Shown here: in pieces, positions 35,365 to 40,994 of the stretch | How positions within the stretch are numbered: the first letter of the stretch is position 1 | Layout of the letters: every line of letters begins with the position of its first letter | From: an uncultured Pseudomonadales bacterium | Lineage (GTDB): Bacteria; Patescibacteriota; Microgenomatia; UBA1400; UBA1396 | DNA: 64,000 nt | Reading direction: 5' to 3' | Assembly: GCA_964511175.1 (NCBI GenBank) | Contig: CAZEEI010000002.1 | Coordinates: 132,382 to 196,381 of the forward strand | The notes under the pieces: generated by a model | Databases searched by the model: none | The model's input: only the letters and a program-made list of their open reading frames with translations | What the model was told of the DNA's origin: nothing | Position numbers and translations under genes: made by a program

Positions 35365-37545
35365 ATGTCTACCCCGAGATCACCTGATGTGCCAACTCCT
35401 GAATCCGAGGTAGAGGAAAAATCACGGAAAGAAAATTTGGTTGACACACCCTTAAAGTTGTTGCGTGTACTTTATCGGTTATTAGAATCAGAGCATCCCT
35501 CCCAAGACATAAGCGGCGAGGCTTTAGAAGGAACACGTCATGTGGGGAGAGATAAAGTTTCGGTTTGGACTTTGGCGTTTTCTAATAAAGCCAATGATTT
35601 TTTTTCTAAACATAATGCTATAGAAGATGTACTATTAGTAAACTTGCAGTGGTTTAATCGTATTTTCCGTCCGCAAAGAAAAAATATTTTTGGCGAGGCC
35701 GATCCTGGTTTTGCTTCCCGCGTATTCAGGTCGCACATGAATTCCGGTTTTTTCACACACTCGGAGATTGCCACCTATTTACAGCGAGCGGGAGAAGAAG
35801 AAAAGCGCGGTTTATTGGATTCGGCCTATTTTATTGATCCCGATGAACTTTCTCTTGGAAAACCACCTAATGCTGACCCAGAATTGATTAGCAATAGAGG
35901 CTGTTTTAATTTTCAGGAGCACCTACCATCAATACCTGACTTATCTTTACCAAATTTAGTAGAACGAGTAATTACCGAAAATTTGTTAAAACAATGTTTA
36001 ATTATTTTGGAAAAAACACGTGGTATTAGGCAATCCGATGGAACAATCAAGTGGGATGGGGTGGGGCCACTACCACTGCCCATAGGTGAAGTCAAAATTG
36101 CCGTACGTATAGGCAATGTGGAACATCCGTTAACAATTAACATTGATGGAAAACAATTACGATCCGTATTGGATCATATTTTGCAAAATGATGACCTAAC
36201 AATATATCAGGATGATCTTTTGTTTGTACGCAAACATATATTAGCTCAAGTATCGCAATTATTAATATCGGGTAAAACAAAAGGGTCACGGGTTATTACT
36301 CCCAACGAAGTAAAGCAGGCTTATAGCCGGGATGCCTACAAGGATATAGAACAAAAACCCGTTAATGCTTTTTCGATCAATATATTGCCAGAAAAAATTA
36401 TGGAAGGAGGGGCGACGGTTAGACCAGCCACTAGTTTAACCAATAGCTGGCAGAATTGGTCAACTACCGATTTATATATTAATCAAGGTGGGCAACTCAT
36501 CGCTCGTGGGCAAAATTTTGCGCATCCCATGATTGATGGGCGAGAAGCGGAGATATTTTTTACTAATGCCGACCCCGGATTGGCTCTTATTCAAAAACAT
36601 CTTAATGAATCAGATAAACAGGTCAATGCTGTGGCCAATCCAGCGGTAACAATTCGGGAAGTAACTAATTTTGCCGAATCGGAGACGCTCCGAAATTTGC
36701 AGGAAAATGTGCCGGATATATTTGCGGAAACAGTTATTCCCAGTGAAATAGTGACTGAATTACGCAGGAGACATAAAGAATTAATTAATCATTTATTAAG
36801 TAACCCCGCTCTCCTACGCGATAAAATAATGCCATTTGTGTGGCAGAGACAATATCTGCGTACGCTCCTACTAAAACCAGAAGAAAATAGAGAGAAAATA
36901 AGCTCTGAGATACGGCAAATCTTTTCCTTTAATACCTTTCTGAGCTTAACGCTGGCAAGCTTACTGAATCTTCAGGGGGAATTACTAGTCTTAAACGCTT
37001 ATGGGAGAGTAAACCCGGCTTTAATGGGCATTCCCAGAGTGTTGGAAGAATATTTAAGACGAGGGGGAGAACTCTCTGAACAAGAGCTTGGTGAGGTTGC
37101 CATTAGTATATTGATGAGCGCATCAATAGTACGAGAAGAAAAAAAGTTGGCTCAAGACAAAATGTATCCTGGCACAACCGCTTTCCGTCTCTCCACCGTG
37201 TCGGGTCCAAACGAGAAACTGCTCGATTTTCTATCGAGTATAGTGATTCCTTGGAAACAACAGGCGTTACAAGAAAATAAGGCACAAATATCTTTTCTTT
37301 CAGGGGTCAAGGATCTTATTTTCCAGGGCGCTTTAGCCAAGCGCTACCCGGCTACGGCTGCTGTCCACGAATATAAAGGGCCTAACGGAAGCAGTTTCCG
37401 CGTAAACGTTAGGTCGCGCCGAGAAGATCAAGTCCGCACACCTCTACCCTCACTTTCTGCGGAAAAAATCCAAGCCCGCTGCGAAGCCCTTTTTGCAATT
37501 TTAGAAAATTACTTTAATACTTCCAGCAATTCCGCCACTTCTTGA
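35365..37545 (+). CDS. large hypothetical protein (726 aa), no signal peptide, acidic N-terminus
   Basis: Long uninterrupted ORF with no motifs I recognise; adjacent to tRNA-Val. Confidence 0.6.
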   Translation: MSTPRSPDVPTPESEVEEKSRKENLVDTPLKLLRVLYRLLESEHPSQDISGEALEGTRHVGRDKVSVWTLAFSNKANDFFSKHNAIEDVLLVNLQWFNRIFRPQRKNIFGEADPGFASRVFRSHMNSGFFTHSEIATYLQRAGEEEKRGLLDSAYFIDPDELSLGKPPNADPELISNRGCFNFQEHLPSIPDLSLPNLVERVITENLLKQCLIILEKTRGIRQSDGTIKWDGVGPLPLPIGEVKIAVRIGNVEHPLTINIDGKQLRSVLDHILQNDDLTIYQDDLLFVRKHILAQVSQLLISGKTKGSRVITPNEVKQAYSRDAYKDIEQKPVNAFSINILPEKIMEGGATVRPATSLTNSWQNWSTTDLYINQGGQLIARGQNFAHPMIDGREAEIFFTNADPGLALIQKHLNESDKQVNAVANPAVTIREVTNFAESETLRNLQENVPDIFAETVIPSEIVTELRRRHKELINHLLSNPALLRDKIMPFVWQRQYLRTLLLKPEENREKISSEIRQIFSFNTFLSLTLASLLNLQGELLVLNAYGRVNPALMGIPRVLEEYLRRGGELSEQELGEVAISILMSASIVREEKKLAQDKMYPGTTAFRLSTVSGPNEKLLDFLSSIVIPWKQQALQENKAQISFLSGVKDLIFQGALAKRYPATAAVHEYKGPNGSSFRVNVRSRREDQVRTPLPSLSAEKIQARCEALFAILENYFNTSSNSATS

Positions 37546-38594
37546 GCGCTGTTAGTCTGCACCAAAGCGGTGCGTAAGCTAGACGCGTTGGGAAAACCCT
37601 TGATATACCAGGCTAAGTGTTTGCGCATGGCAAAAAATGAGTCGCCAGGAAAATCTCGCTCGTATTGTTGGGCATGTTCTAGTGCCACATGAGCACGGTC
37701 GGCTAAGGTTGGTTCTTGAGCTAGGGGTTGTCCATCCCGCCAGCGCACTATTTGGTCTAGCGTCCACGGATTACCAAAAGTAGCACGGCCAATCAAAACA
37801 CCGTCGACGTTAGTTTCAGCTACTCTTTGGGCTATATCATCTGGTGTAGATAAATCGCCATTACCCAAAATGAGCGTGCCACTACCTTGTGCCAACTTTA
37901 CCGCTTCACCAATAGCGGACCAATCCGCTCGACCGCCGTAACCCTGTTTGAGAGTACGTCCATGAATCGAGATTGCGGCCGGCTGGATTTCTAACAGATA
38001 GGGCAACCACTGGGCAATGATAGGTTGATCGTAGCCAATTCTAGTTTTAACCGAAACCGGCCGCGGCGTTCGTTGCTGGTAAACAACGGGCAGAGTTTGG
38101 TGACGTTTTTCAATCAGATCGCGCGTTTTTTGTTTTAGTTCCGGAAAGTCACGGAGGGATTTGCCATCCACCCAATCTTGTACACCGGCTTGAGCCGCAC
38201 GGATAATTTCCTGGGCCAGTTTTGGTGTTTGAATCAGGGCTGCGCCAGCTCCATGTTGACTAACATTTTTAGCCGGGCAACCCATGTTGAGATCGATGCC
38301 ATCAAAACCTAAATAACAGAGAATAAAAGCGGTGGTGCGGAAGGCAGCTGGTTCTTTGCCAAAAATTTGCGCCACAATGGGGCGCTGAGTTTCGTCAAAA
38401 ATGAGACCGCGGAAAAGCTTGAGAGCATTGTGGGCTACGCCTTCGGCGGCAATAAATTCGGTAAAAATAACGTCTGGCCGACCATATTTTTTAGTGATGT
38501 AGCGAAATGGTTGATCGGTAATACCATCCATGGGACTTAAACCGATAATTGGTTGTGGTAGATTGTTCCAAAAACCGGGAAAAATCTTCGACAT
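37509..38594 (-). CDS. dusB: tRNA-dihydrouridine synthase
   Basis: DGITDQPFR, NMGCP (catalytic Cys), and FMN-binding TIM-barrel motifs. Confidence 0.85.
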   Translation of the reverse strand: MSKIFPGFWNNLPQPIIGLSPMDGITDQPFRYITKKYGRPDVIFTEFIAAEGVAHNALKLFRGLIFDETQRPIVAQIFGKEPAAFRTTAFILCYLGFDGIDLNMGCPAKNVSQHGAGAALIQTPKLAQEIIRAAQAGVQDWVDGKSLRDFPELKQKTRDLIEKRHQTLPVVYQQRTPRPVSVKTRIGYDQPIIAQWLPYLLEIQPAAISIHGRTLKQGYGGRADWSAIGEAVKLAQGSGTLILGNGDLSTPDDIAQRVAETNVDGVLIGRATFGNPWTLDQIVRWRDGQPLAQEPTLADRAHVALEHAQQYERDFPGDSFFAMRKHLAWYIKGFPNASSLRTALVQTNSAQEVAELLEVLK

Positions 38595-38625
38595 AAAGGG
38601 GAATTATACTAGAGTTACTTAATAA

Positions 38626-38655
38626 TTGACAAATCCGTTAAATTGTTTATATAAT
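38626..38655 (+). promoter_or_regulatory. sigma70-type promoter (TTGACA, 18-nt spacer, TATAAT)
   Basis: Exact consensus -35 at 38626-31 and exact -10 at 38650-55. Confidence 0.55.
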
Positions 38656-38660
38656 CGCGA

Positions 38661-38750
38661 AGTACTCGTGAGGGACCTCCCGAAACCGGATAGGTACTTG
38701 TACCAAAGCTGGAAAAGCGAGTATAGCAGAAAAGCCCTTAGGGCTTTTTT
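38661..38750 (+). ncRNA. candidate small structured RNA (~90 nt), class unknown
   Basis: Bounded by the consensus promoter and an intrinsic terminator. Internal helices: GTACTCG/CGAGTAT closing stem, GGGacctCCC hairpin, GGTActtgTACC hairpin. Confidence 0.4.
38731..38750. terminator. intrinsic (rho-independent) terminator, likely bidirectional
   Basis: aaaGCCCttaGGGCtttttt; the minus strand also has a T-rich tract after the hairpin. It overlaps the stop of the 38738 gene. Confidence 0.6.
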
Positions 38751-39157
38751 GTTGTTTCTTTACTCTTGATCGAAAAATAATGCGGTCTGGAATGATTCAG
38801 CTGACGAACTATTACTTGAATACAACGTTTTTTTCCATCAACAACTACCGCGCAGCTCACTTCCCAATAAATAGCTTGGCGAGTATTCCCTCGGTATTTG
38901 ATCAATCGCGTCTCAACCCTAGTTGGCGGTGCCGACGCATTTTCGATAACCTCTTGAGCAAACAAGAATAAACTCAAGCGTTTATTTATTTCCAAACGGT
39001 TTCTTCGATGACCATTACCGTCGAAGAAAAGGTGATTCCAACCATGGCGGTTGAAGACTATTTTGCATTGAATTGCCGGGCAAAAGATAGGTCTAGTTTT
39101 GAGGTTTTTGTAAACGTCTTTGACTTTTTTGATAGATAACGCAGAGGTGTCTGACAT
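38738..39157 (-). CDS. hypothetical protein (139 aa)
   Basis: Basic, Cys-containing ORF with no recognised motifs; upstream of it lies a secreted-protein gene. Confidence 0.4.
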   Translation of the reverse strand: MSDTSALSIKKVKDVYKNLKTRPIFCPAIQCKIVFNRHGWNHLFFDGNGHRRNRLEINKRLSLFLFAQEVIENASAPPTRVETRLIKYRGNTRQAIYWEVSCAVVVDGKKRCIQVIVRQLNHSRPHYFSIKSKETTKKP

Positions 39158-39176
39158 TGGTGTAAACGAAGAATCT

Positions 39177-40994
39177 TTACGGGAATTTTGTTAACAATAT
39201 TTGCCTAAAATGTTGTCTTAGACCCATAGCCAGCCAATTAGTTAACCATCCGCCAGAGACACTCTGGTTCAGCATTAATTCGAAACCGCGCTGAACAGAC
39301 TGTGCATCAGCTAAAATAGCAGTGTTTAAAAGTTTGTCTTGATACTCCAGAAGCAAATCGACTAAAGCTGGATGGCGCAGTCGATCTGATAGATAAAGCT
39401 CGATTAACTGCGGACGGCTGAGTAAACTCATTGATGTGTTGCTGGTGGTGATCTGCGGCTGATCGGCTGTTAAATCAACATTCCAGCTGAGCGGCGTCGT
39501 CTCGGACGAAATGAGATAGGAAATAACACTGACTTTGCCGGTAGCAGTGTAGGCTGCCAGCCAAATAGGCGAAAACGCTTGAGTGTCGGAAAAAATAAGC
39601 TCTACCTTTGCCGGTGGCTTAGCTAAATCGTAGAGAAAATAGGGTGTTTTAGTGGCTAAAGTTGTTTCCACTAGGCGTACAGGTGTTAATTGGTTGCCAG
39701 TCGTATCTTGAAAAACAACTTGCGTACTTAACGGTGTAATAACCGTAATCCCGCTTAAGTCAGTATGGCTGGGCACAAACAGCCGCGCCGAAGTAAAAGT
39801 ATTAGCATAGCTGTCTAAACGTAAGCGAGTATAAAAAGGATCATGAATATTAAAGTCAAGCCTACCTGGCCCAAAACCATAGGCGGTAATAAAATGTCCT
39901 GGCTCGGCCAGAATTACCGGTTGGTTATTTTGGATTTGTTGGCGTAGCCAAGCCAATTGGTTAGTGGGATTGGCGTAAGTCATTTCGAGAGTTGGCACTT
40001 CGGTATGACTTTGGGAAAATAAATAACTCAGACGACTGAGGGCACGCCAGTTAACGCTGCCATCTGGTAAATAGCCGTCTACTTCTTGTTGCAGCCAAAG
40101 GTTTAGAGAACCGGGATCAAGCGTGGTTTCGTCCGGTAAAGCGTCAATGCCGTAGTAACGCAACACCATTACCGCACTAACCAACGCACAACCCCAGTAT
40201 TTAATCAGTGGACTTTGTGGCGCCCACAGAGTGGCTGTATCGTAAATTTGACTGCGCCAGGGGTCATCGGTTTGTTTCAACAACAGCACTTCTAGATTTT
40301 TAGTTTGAGCCAATGATTCAACGCGAAAATCGTCAAAGCGCACATAAGAATGACTTACTGCACCCACACTTGCGGCTAAACCCGGCTTGCCCTGTTCCAA
40401 TTGAGGATCACTGGGTGATTCGAAAATATCTAGAACCAACTGGTCGTCCAGCCATAATTGGAGGTTTCGGGCTGATAAATCATATTCCCAAAATACGTTA
40501 TACCAGTGGTTCTCTTGGAAATTGAAAGCTCTGGTTCCATTTTGCCAGACATAACTTTGTCCCTTAATCATTTTTTCGGCCTGAATACCGGTTCCAAAAA
40601 GATGGATTCCCAAACGATTGGCACTATCTTGCCAACGAATTAGCAGATTACGATCCATATTACGATTAGATATAAACAACCGCAGGGAAACTCGTTGGAA
40701 GCGCTGATCGGCGACGGCGTTAGTAAGCGGCACAATTTCTGTAGCACAGGGAATACTACCATCGATGTTAATTTCCACTGCTCCGTTCACTACTTGCCAC
40801 TGTGGTCTGCCGCTGGGGGAAACACAGGTATAGTGAGGATCGTCCAAGGCGGCATTGCGCACTTCGGTCCACTGCCACTGGCTGGCAAAATCATCCGTCC
40901 ACAGGACTTCCGCCGCCCGTACCGGTCGAATTAAAATCAACACCAAAAGCAAGCCTATTAGGATGGCTCGATTTTTCATAATCTTAGTTTGCAA
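39177..40994 (-). CDS. secreted protein with an N-terminal lectin/ConA-like region and a putative papain-fold (C39-like) cysteine peptidase domain
   Basis: Signal peptide MKNRAILIGLLLVLILIRPVRA. The YWGCALVSAVMVLRYYG block resembles the C39/C39_2 catalytic Cys region. Confidence 0.55.
   Translation of the reverse strand: MQTKIMKNRAILIGLLLVLILIRPVRAAEVLWTDDFASQWQWTEVRNAALDDPHYTCVSPSGRPQWQVVNGAVEINIDGSIPCATEIVPLTNAVADQRFQRVSLRLFISNRNMDRNLLIRWQDSANRLGIHLFGTGIQAEKMIKGQSYVWQNGTRAFNFQENHWYNVFWEYDLSARNLQLWLDDQLVLDIFESPSDPQLEQGKPGLAASVGAVSHSYVRFDDFRVESLAQTKNLEVLLLKQTDDPWRSQIYDTATLWAPQSPLIKYWGCALVSAVMVLRYYGIDALPDETTLDPGSLNLWLQQEVDGYLPDGSVNWRALSRLSYLFSQSHTEVPTLEMTYANPTNQLAWLRQQIQNNQPVILAEPGHFITAYGFGPGRLDFNIHDPFYTRLRLDSYANTFTSARLFVPSHTDLSGITVITPLSTQVVFQDTTGNQLTPVRLVETTLATKTPYFLYDLAKPPAKVELIFSDTQAFSPIWLAAYTATGKVSVISYLISSETTPLSWNVDLTADQPQITTSNTSMSLLSRPQLIELYLSDRLRHPALVDLLLEYQDKLLNTAILADAQSVQRGFELMLNQSVSGGWLTNWLAMGLRQHFRQILLTKFP

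Follow-up and report, generated by a model that had tools for sequence, protein, structure and literature searches.

A structured small RNA and a convergently encoded LPD3-like protein form a candidate RNA-antitoxin/toxin-like module in CPR-type genomes

In the type I pairs TxpA/RatA and BsrG/SR4, and in the enzyme-toxin pair SymE/SymR, a strongly promoted small RNA lies tail to tail with a protein gene, and the two transcripts overlap at their 3′ ends. Type I toxins are small (<60 aa) hydrophobic or membrane peptides. The type III systems ToxIN, CptIN, and TenpIN consist of a protein and a dedicated noncoding RNA, with no protein antitoxin; they are sporadically distributed and mobile-looking, the toxin is an endoribonuclease of the ToxN/AbiQ fold, and ToxI is a set of tandem pseudoknot repeats that lies upstream of the toxin gene on the same strand and is cotranscribed with it. 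BECR/RelE toxins are paired with protein immunity (CdiA-CT/CdiI, BrnT/BrnA, and RelE/RelB). The LPD3 domain (PF18798) occurs in the polyvalent proteins of phages and conjugative elements, where it is without an assigned function and its domain context is that of conflict-system effectors (Iyer et al. 2017, PMC5512222).

The module that we describe here lies in a 64-kb stretch of DNA (the window, by which we mean the whole stretch analyzed) and most resembles an RNA-antitoxin/toxin pair, yet it is without the defining features of type III systems. As in those systems, a protein is accompanied by a dedicated noncoding RNA rather than by a protein antitoxin, the distribution is sporadic and mobile-looking, and the RNA is presumed to act by protein binding. 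Unlike in those systems, the partner protein is LPD3-like, and the RNA, a single three-way junction with no tandem repeats in the region 38300–39500, is convergent with the protein gene and has its own strong promoter; nothing points to RNA processing by the partner. The tail-to-tail layout, the 3′-end overlap, and the strong RNA promoter are shared with the convergent type I pairs; the overlap, however, comprises only the terminator, a conserved structured RNA domain lies outside it, and the partner is a basic globular domain of 120 to 160 aa instead of a small hydrophobic peptide. Sequence and predicted fold tie this partner to the phage LPD3 domain, but it is a standalone chromosomal CPR (Patescibacteria) gene coupled to an RNA. 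The likeness to BECR/RelE toxins is weak, and the inhibitor here would be an RNA.

Transcription of the RNA would start from a plus-strand promoter (38626–38655) composed of a −35 hexamer TTGACA (38626–38631), an 18-nt spacer, and a −10 hexamer TATAAT (38650–38655). The original prediction described this promoter as perfect, and it does match the sigma-70 consensus at 12 of 12 positions; it is the best and the sole perfect such site in the 64 kb, for which our own arithmetic from base composition gives an expectation of ≈0.05 perfect sites per window. Sites with at least 11 of 12 matches number just two when both strands of the whole window are scanned, this promoter and the dusB promoter that stands back to back with it. 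All promoters in the RNA family are sigma-70-like, and the distance from the end of the −10 box to the first base (G1) of the closing helix, P1, is 6 nt in 18 of 19 members and 7 nt in the other. Because this register is fixed, the transcript very probably begins at the first base of P1, consistent with the predicted start ≈6 nt past the −10 box. With its start placed at G38662, the RNA gene extends to the end of the U6 tract (38662–38750, plus strand), giving a product of ≈89 nt.

The predicted 3′ end, a GC hairpin followed by six U residues, was likewise borne out. An A-rich linker, AGCAGAAAA, leads into an intrinsic terminator GCCC-UUA-GGGC-U6 (38734–38750, inverted repeat I2; linker and terminator together, 38725–38750, plus strand), which is bidirectional because an A tract flanks its 5′ side. 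As also predicted, this terminator overlaps the stop of the convergent gene: its loop, TTA (38738–38740), is the TAA stop codon of a 139-aa ORF on the minus strand (38738–39157). All family members share this arrangement: an A-rich linker precedes the hairpin and its U tract, and the terminator abuts or covers the 3′ end of the protein gene. The RNA overlaps the partner ORF by 0 to 24 nt across members, reaching no coding sequence in several of them.

The 93 nt downstream of the promoter are predicted to fold with a minimum free energy of −35.1 kcal/mol, against −22.0 ± 3.4 kcal/mol for dinucleotide shuffles (z = −3.9; none of the 200 shuffled sequences folds as stably), into a three-way junction followed by the terminator. 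The junction core (38662–38724, plus strand; ≈63 nt) is closed by P1, GUACUCG/CGAGUAU (38662–38668/38718–38724), exactly the closing stem that had been proposed from the single sequence. The junction strand J12, UGA (38669–38671), leads to P2 (38672–38674/38679–38681), a GGG-ACCU-CCC hairpin; J23, GAAA (38682–38685), leads to P3, whose conserved base is CCGG/CUGG (38686–38689/38709–38712); and J31, AAAAG (38713–38717), returns to P1. The original prediction also held two 4-bp tetraloop hairpins. The first corresponds to P2, which has only 3 bp with an ACCU loop. The second, GGUA-CUUG-UACC (38693–38704; pairs 38693–38696/38701–38704), is real in the window sequence but proves to be the variable tip of the longer arm P3, unconserved in the family, and the conserved basal stem of that arm had been missed.

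Comparison of homologous RNAs supports this fold. In 21 aligned RNAs, 99.3% of paired cells hold a pair, compared with 23 to 39% when the partners are slid, and compensatory, double-sided changes occur at 8 of 15 pairs in the 21-sequence model alignment, in line with the compensatory changes that the earlier note had suggested looking for; the observed pair values were reached by 0 of 500 shuffles. The window RNA itself has compensatory changes at two P1 pairs, with A-U in place of G-C and C-G in place of U-A, and in the divergent RNA of locus L152, P1 is fully replaced (GUAGUUGG/CCAGCUAC) while P2 and P3 are kept. Invariant positions comprise G1, U2, C4, and G7 of P1, G11 and G13 of P2, A.AAG in J31, and the first base of the 3′ arm of P1; U8, G9, and A10 of J12 are nearly invariant (≥90%). 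Pair counts were taken from alignments fitted to the covariance model (A7 and A8), since a MAFFT alignment of all RNA types misregisters P2; the L099/L100/L104 subgroup is poorly aligned in A7 and A8. Because 13 of the 21 RNAs were recovered with a pattern that fixes parts of P1, J12, and J31, conservation at these positions is partly imposed; GUGCUUG is, however, also present in six of the nine RNAs selected without any RNA pattern. The covariance model R1, built from seven sequences, scores the 21 clear members at 24 to 85 bits. The window RNA scores 69.1 bits with R1 and 61.8 bits with R2, the second-best match in the window reaches 10 bits (no second RNA copy), and 510 kb of control CPR DNA gave no match. 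The covariation shows the predicted RNA structure to be under selection.

Two further sequence features of the junction and its arms were noted. In most members, P2 is flanked by UGA...GAA, bases that could form tandem sheared G-A pairs like those beside hammerhead stem II, whereas the L091 RNA has UAU...GUA at these positions, which allows Watson–Crick or wobble pairs instead; strands J12 and J23 may therefore pair with each other and extend P2. Every family RNA also carries a UAAG motif in distal P3; the window-like and L087-like groups have it on the 5′ side (GC-UAAGG; AUAGG in the window), the L095/L149 and L099/L100/L104 groups on the 3′ side (UAAG-CCG).

The original prediction could match the transcript to no known RNA class, and the covariance-model search that it proposed agrees. 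At gathering thresholds, Rfam 15 finds only three tRNAs in the window, all elsewhere, and at E ≤ 10 the region 38500–38900 yields only terminator-driven noise (best score 24 bits against a cut-off of 60). Across the family loci (18 searched at gathering thresholds and 11 at E ≤ 10), no match consistently overlaps the RNAs. ARAGORN reports no tRNA or tmRNA gene in 38000–39500, RF00005 gives nothing at E ≤ 10 in 38500–38900, and similarity of the RNA to the tRNAs, 16S rRNA, and tmRNA at hand is limited to chance words of 7 to 10 nt. In the literature, we found no description of this RNA, nor of any RNA partner for LPD3. With its defined ends and covariation, the RNA is well supported by comparative sequence analysis as a new class of structured RNA that is absent from Rfam 15.

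Several superficial likenesses were considered and rejected. The family RNA shares with the hammerhead ribozyme a three-way junction in which UGA and GAAA flank the second stem. The hammerhead core, however, is CUGANGA...GAAA, in which one nucleotide, the cleavage site, separates stems III and I, whereas the RNA reads ...CUCG-UGA-[P2]-GAAA... and has a 5-nt J31; C3-U4-G5-A6 of the core is absent, the family consensus GUGCUUG-UGA is without G5 and A6, and there is no Rfam hammerhead match. The 7-bp terminal stem at the 5′ end, followed by U8, recalls a tRNA, but the RNA has no T arm and no CCA, and the ARAGORN and RF00005 searches are negative. For these two as for the likenesses to SRP RNA and the sarcin–ricin loop, the core motifs fail, Rfam and ARAGORN are negative, and the similar bases are unconserved in the family.

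A promoter, a structured domain, and a terminator facing a gene are also the layout of a riboswitch-like sensor, in which a ligand-binding junction would decide between stopping at the terminator and antisense read-through across the protein gene, and in the window RNA, AAAAGC at J31-P1 could pair with GCUUUU in the 3′ arm of the terminator. We regard this reading as very improbable. The alternative pairing is not conserved, being absent in L102, L091, and the L087 group, P1 is a stable helix of 7 to 8 bp with no competing expression platform, and no Rfam riboswitch matches. As either a riboswitch or a cis-leader the RNA is rejected on two grounds, the absence of a conserved antiterminator in the family and the absence of a plausible ORF downstream on the plus strand, at the window locus as throughout the family, in which the convergent gene always comes next. 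The own promoter, the stable predicted fold, and the lack of such an ORF instead bear out the earlier view of an independent structured small RNA that is not a leader.

That view had also held the RNA to be an orphan, and here the comparison across loci contradicts it. Nine loci were chosen by their protein only (the window, L086, L087, L089, L091, L095, L152, L153, and L154), the members having 23 to 42% protein identity to the window protein; in all nine, the 130- to 220-nt gap downstream of the protein gene holds, on the opposite strand, a sigma-70-like promoter, a homologous three-way-junction RNA, and a terminator. Conversely, we searched metagenomes with a DNA pattern derived from the RNA alone (GTGCYTGTGAG-N30-60-AAAAGCARGCR). 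It matched 56 loci, 13 of them distinct loci with promoter and terminator, and every one of these 13 RNAs with enough contig has an adjacent, convergent partner gene, the exception being L101, whose contig ends first. About 37 of the 56 matches are chance or coding matches with no promoter, terminator, or partner protein. A near-identical, apparently protein-coding segment that recurs in many soil metagenomes also matched the pattern; it is unrelated to the RNA family and is without promoter, terminator, and partner protein (L097, L098, L103, L114, L117, L119, L129, L131, L147, and L150). In viral contigs, the first pattern gave one chance match, in a GC-rich phage, and two family patterns gave none.

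In total, 22 homologous RNA copies were found, 21 of which were aligned. The RNA is the only constant neighbor of the partner gene; the other neighbors differ from locus to locus and include rplU/CAP, UvrD, glutamate dehydrogenase, dCTP deaminase, NDK, peptidase S51, a MORC-like ATPase, an IS1595 transposase, and a 16S rRNA gene. Conservation of the RNA independent of synteny, which the original prediction had suggested as a check, is thus what we observe, the RNA being kept in unrelated genomic contexts. RNA and protein have diverged together (Mantel r = 0.42; 0 of 2000 permutations), the RNAs being 60 to 98% identical and the proteins 16 to 89%. The family is sporadic, with 212 protein clusters compared with more than 6000 close DusB matches. 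Taken across these loci, the comparisons show RNA and protein gene to be inherited as a unit, at many unrelated positions, in CPR-type (Patescibacteria) genomes.

These comparative data effectively refute the reading by which a fortuitous promoter-like site and chance hairpins occupy a spacer whose terminator serves the convergent gene only. Such a reading could draw on the frequency with which promoter-like matches turn up in AT-rich spacers and at bidirectional terminators, and a promoter scan of the 4.5-kb region was not enriched overall, but it is excluded by the 22 homologous copies, the covariation, the fixed promoter register, and the absence of matches in the controls.

Some of the individual neighborhoods have features of their own. 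In L118 (938–4337), a 16S rRNA gene with a group I intron lies beside the module copy, together with a second partial SSU fragment and a group II intron fragment, and an intron-bearing 16S gene agrees with a CPR origin of this contig. In L154 (1–1923; GCA_001773385.1), the LPD3-like gene lies 33 nt downstream of a gene for a MORC-like GHKL ATPase (HATPase_c_3 plus Morc6_S5) on the same strand, which may represent a conflict-system context. In L089 (4440–5282), an IS1595-family DDE transposase gene is found ≈1 kb from the module.

The partner gene in the window (38738–39157, minus strand), whose stop codon forms the terminator loop, encodes a basic (pI 10.3) standalone protein of 139 aa. A word-indexed search with this protein found only itself, and an exhaustive phmmer search of 1.84 billion representatives (E ≤ 1e-3) returned 212 cluster representatives, nearly all of them standalone proteins of 110 to 185 aa. 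The partner proteins of the RNA loci are about 120 to 160 aa in length with a pI of 9.9 to 10.8, which suits RNA binding. The family alignment has a motif FNxxGxxHL...GxGxRR, in which Y16, G39, H42, and R52 are invariant across the family and C26, F35, R60, V115, and S129 nearly so. The window protein matches LPD3 over profile positions 8 to 114 of 114 with 24.8 bits, below the Pfam cut-off of 27, and Pfam and NCBIfam find nothing else in it; among 50 family members, 26 have a Pfam LPD3 match (best E = 7e-8). The AlphaFold model is a globular α+β protein (pLDDT 94.4), and Foldseek matches it to the LPD3 domains of phage polyvalent proteins (probability 1.0; TM 0.5 to 0.65). No match was found with Foldseek against the PDB, nor in PADLOC, PHROG, or PDB sequences. 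The weak fold matches are BECR/RelE RNase toxins, with no sequence relationship. The invariant H42 and R52 and the nearly invariant R60 and S129 would suit a metal-independent RNase.

On these grounds, we favor, at a probability of roughly 45%, a type III-like toxin–antitoxin or addiction module in which an abundant RNA would sequester or inhibit a toxic effector. The consensus promoter would fire at G38662 and produce an abundant RNA of ≈89 nt, consisting of the ≈63-nt three-way junction with its conserved UGA, GAAA, and AAAAG strands, the A-rich linker, and the terminator hairpin. From the opposite strand, the gene that ends inside the terminator would yield the small, very basic LPD3-like protein, and the RNA, a single-copy and separately transcribed antitoxin, would bind this protein and keep its toxic, probably RNA-targeting effector domain inactive. 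The reading is based on the conflict-system origin of LPD3, the hints of an RNase-toxin-like fold, and the conserved His, Arg, and Ser residues, as well as on the sporadic distribution and indel behavior, both of which are typical of selfish toxin–antitoxin-like modules. We infer that the RNA works through the partner protein by direct binding and not by base-pairing with its mRNA; the strict co-occurrence, the co-divergence, and the basic protein lend this indirect support.

The shared bidirectional terminator gives the two transcripts ≈25 to 35 nt of 3′ complementarity, which could add a minor antisense layer. A type I-like arrangement in which this 3′ overlap is the small RNA's only means of regulating the partner mRNA, as in the convergent RatA/TxpA or SR4/BsrG pairs, would account for the convergent layout with a shared terminator in all members and the ORF overlap of 0 to 24 nt; it is nevertheless unlikely, because the terminator hairpin contains the whole overlap, which falls short of coding sequence in several members, because the conserved covarying three-way junction lies outside the mRNA overlap, and because the protein is a soluble basic domain of 120 to 160 aa and not a small hydrophobic peptide. 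In many loci (L086, L087, L089, L108, L118, L123, and L139), a TATAAT-like box lies 6 to 8 nt upstream of the partner ATG, so that the partner mRNAs mostly look leaderless. Complementarity between the RNA core and the partner start region is absent (mean z = −0.26). These two features together are evidence against classic antisense control.

The type III-like reading is itself weakened by the conservation of the RNA, which far exceeds that of the protein and is unusual for a private antitoxin–toxin interface. This is a hint either that a conserved cellular partner constrains the RNA or that the effector is the RNA. A nontoxic ribonucleoprotein, with the RNA as functional component or substrate and the protein as its dedicated binding or maturation factor, is the main rival explanation, possible but less probable. 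The RNA might then serve as a scaffold, might be a decoy that engages some conserved cellular machine, or might be processed or modified by the LPD3-like protein. Such a particle would fit the better conserved RNA sequence, the near invariance of P1 and the junction bases across proteins that are only 20 to 35% identical, the very strong promoter, and the basic protein. The sporadic distribution and the variable, indel-like position, however, are unlike a housekeeping ribonucleoprotein, the protein domain comes from conflict proteins of phages and conjugative elements, and the RNA resembles none of the available tRNA, 16S rRNA, and tmRNA sequences. Somewhat speculatively, the toxin–antitoxin and ribonucleoprotein views can be reconciled if LPD3, a domain widespread among the injected polyvalent proteins of phages and plasmids, is an RNA-targeting effector and its standalone CPR copy, domesticated or selfish, is checked by a highly expressed three-way-junction RNA that acts as a substrate-mimic decoy, which would explain why the RNA is far more conserved than the protein.

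The obligate RNA partner found here provides the first genetic hint of what the LPD3 domain of phage polyvalent proteins does. If the toxin–antitoxin reading is true, RNA-antitoxin systems extend beyond the ToxN-type, repeat-array design, and the small genomes of hard-to-culture CPR bacteria carry RNA-antitoxin modules. If LPD3 is indeed an effector held by a decoy RNA, the module would represent a new class of RNA antitoxin, one whose RNA is nonrepetitive, whose toxin fold is unrelated, and whose gene is convergent, and the first RNA–protein toxin–antitoxin-like system described for the candidate phyla radiation. At ≈580 bp, the module is compact and amenable to direct testing in Escherichia coli.

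In the window, the module occupies 38595–39176 and comprises the protein gene, the RNA gene, and a new dusB promoter. It is an indel between a gene of ≈600 aa (39177–40994, minus strand; weak C39-like peptidase match) and dusB (37509–38594, minus strand). A GT2 glycosyltransferase gene also lies in this neighborhood. In the two closest relatives (DusB 68% and 64%), an ortholog of the ≈600-aa gene (48% and 34% identity) directly precedes dusB, the two being separated by 18 nt or overlapping; the 139-aa gene and the RNA are therefore an indel, most simply an insertion. No tandem repeats (38300–39500), target-site duplication, or terminal inverted repeats were found around it. The relatives of DusB in GTDB are Patescibacteria/Paceibacterota metagenome-assembled genomes with at most 60% identity, so that the window derives from a CPR lineage with sparse sampling; its sequence is also present in two Logan assemblies and one NCBI contig.

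The RNA gene had been described as divergent from dusB, and the two promoters do stand back to back, but the link is incidental. Neither blastn/nhmmer nor the covariance model finds the RNA upstream of dusB in 80 GTDB relatives, and the two closest relatives lack it as well; dusB is therefore a bystander. The dusB promoter on the minus strand (TTGTCA at 38632–38627, 18 nt, TATAAT at 38608–38603; 11/12; region 38594–38632) has a −35 hexamer that overlaps that of the RNA promoter by 5 nt, and the two promoters may compete for RNA polymerase. Because the dusB ATG lies 9 nt past its −10 box, the dusB mRNA probably has little or no leader. At its other end, dusB is met by a converging 726-aa ORF (35365–37545, plus strand) with no Pfam or NCBIfam match, the two genes overlapping by 37 nt at their 3′ ends. 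A homolog of this ORF, of ≈735 aa, is found nearby but placed differently in the relative L083 (12984–15191).
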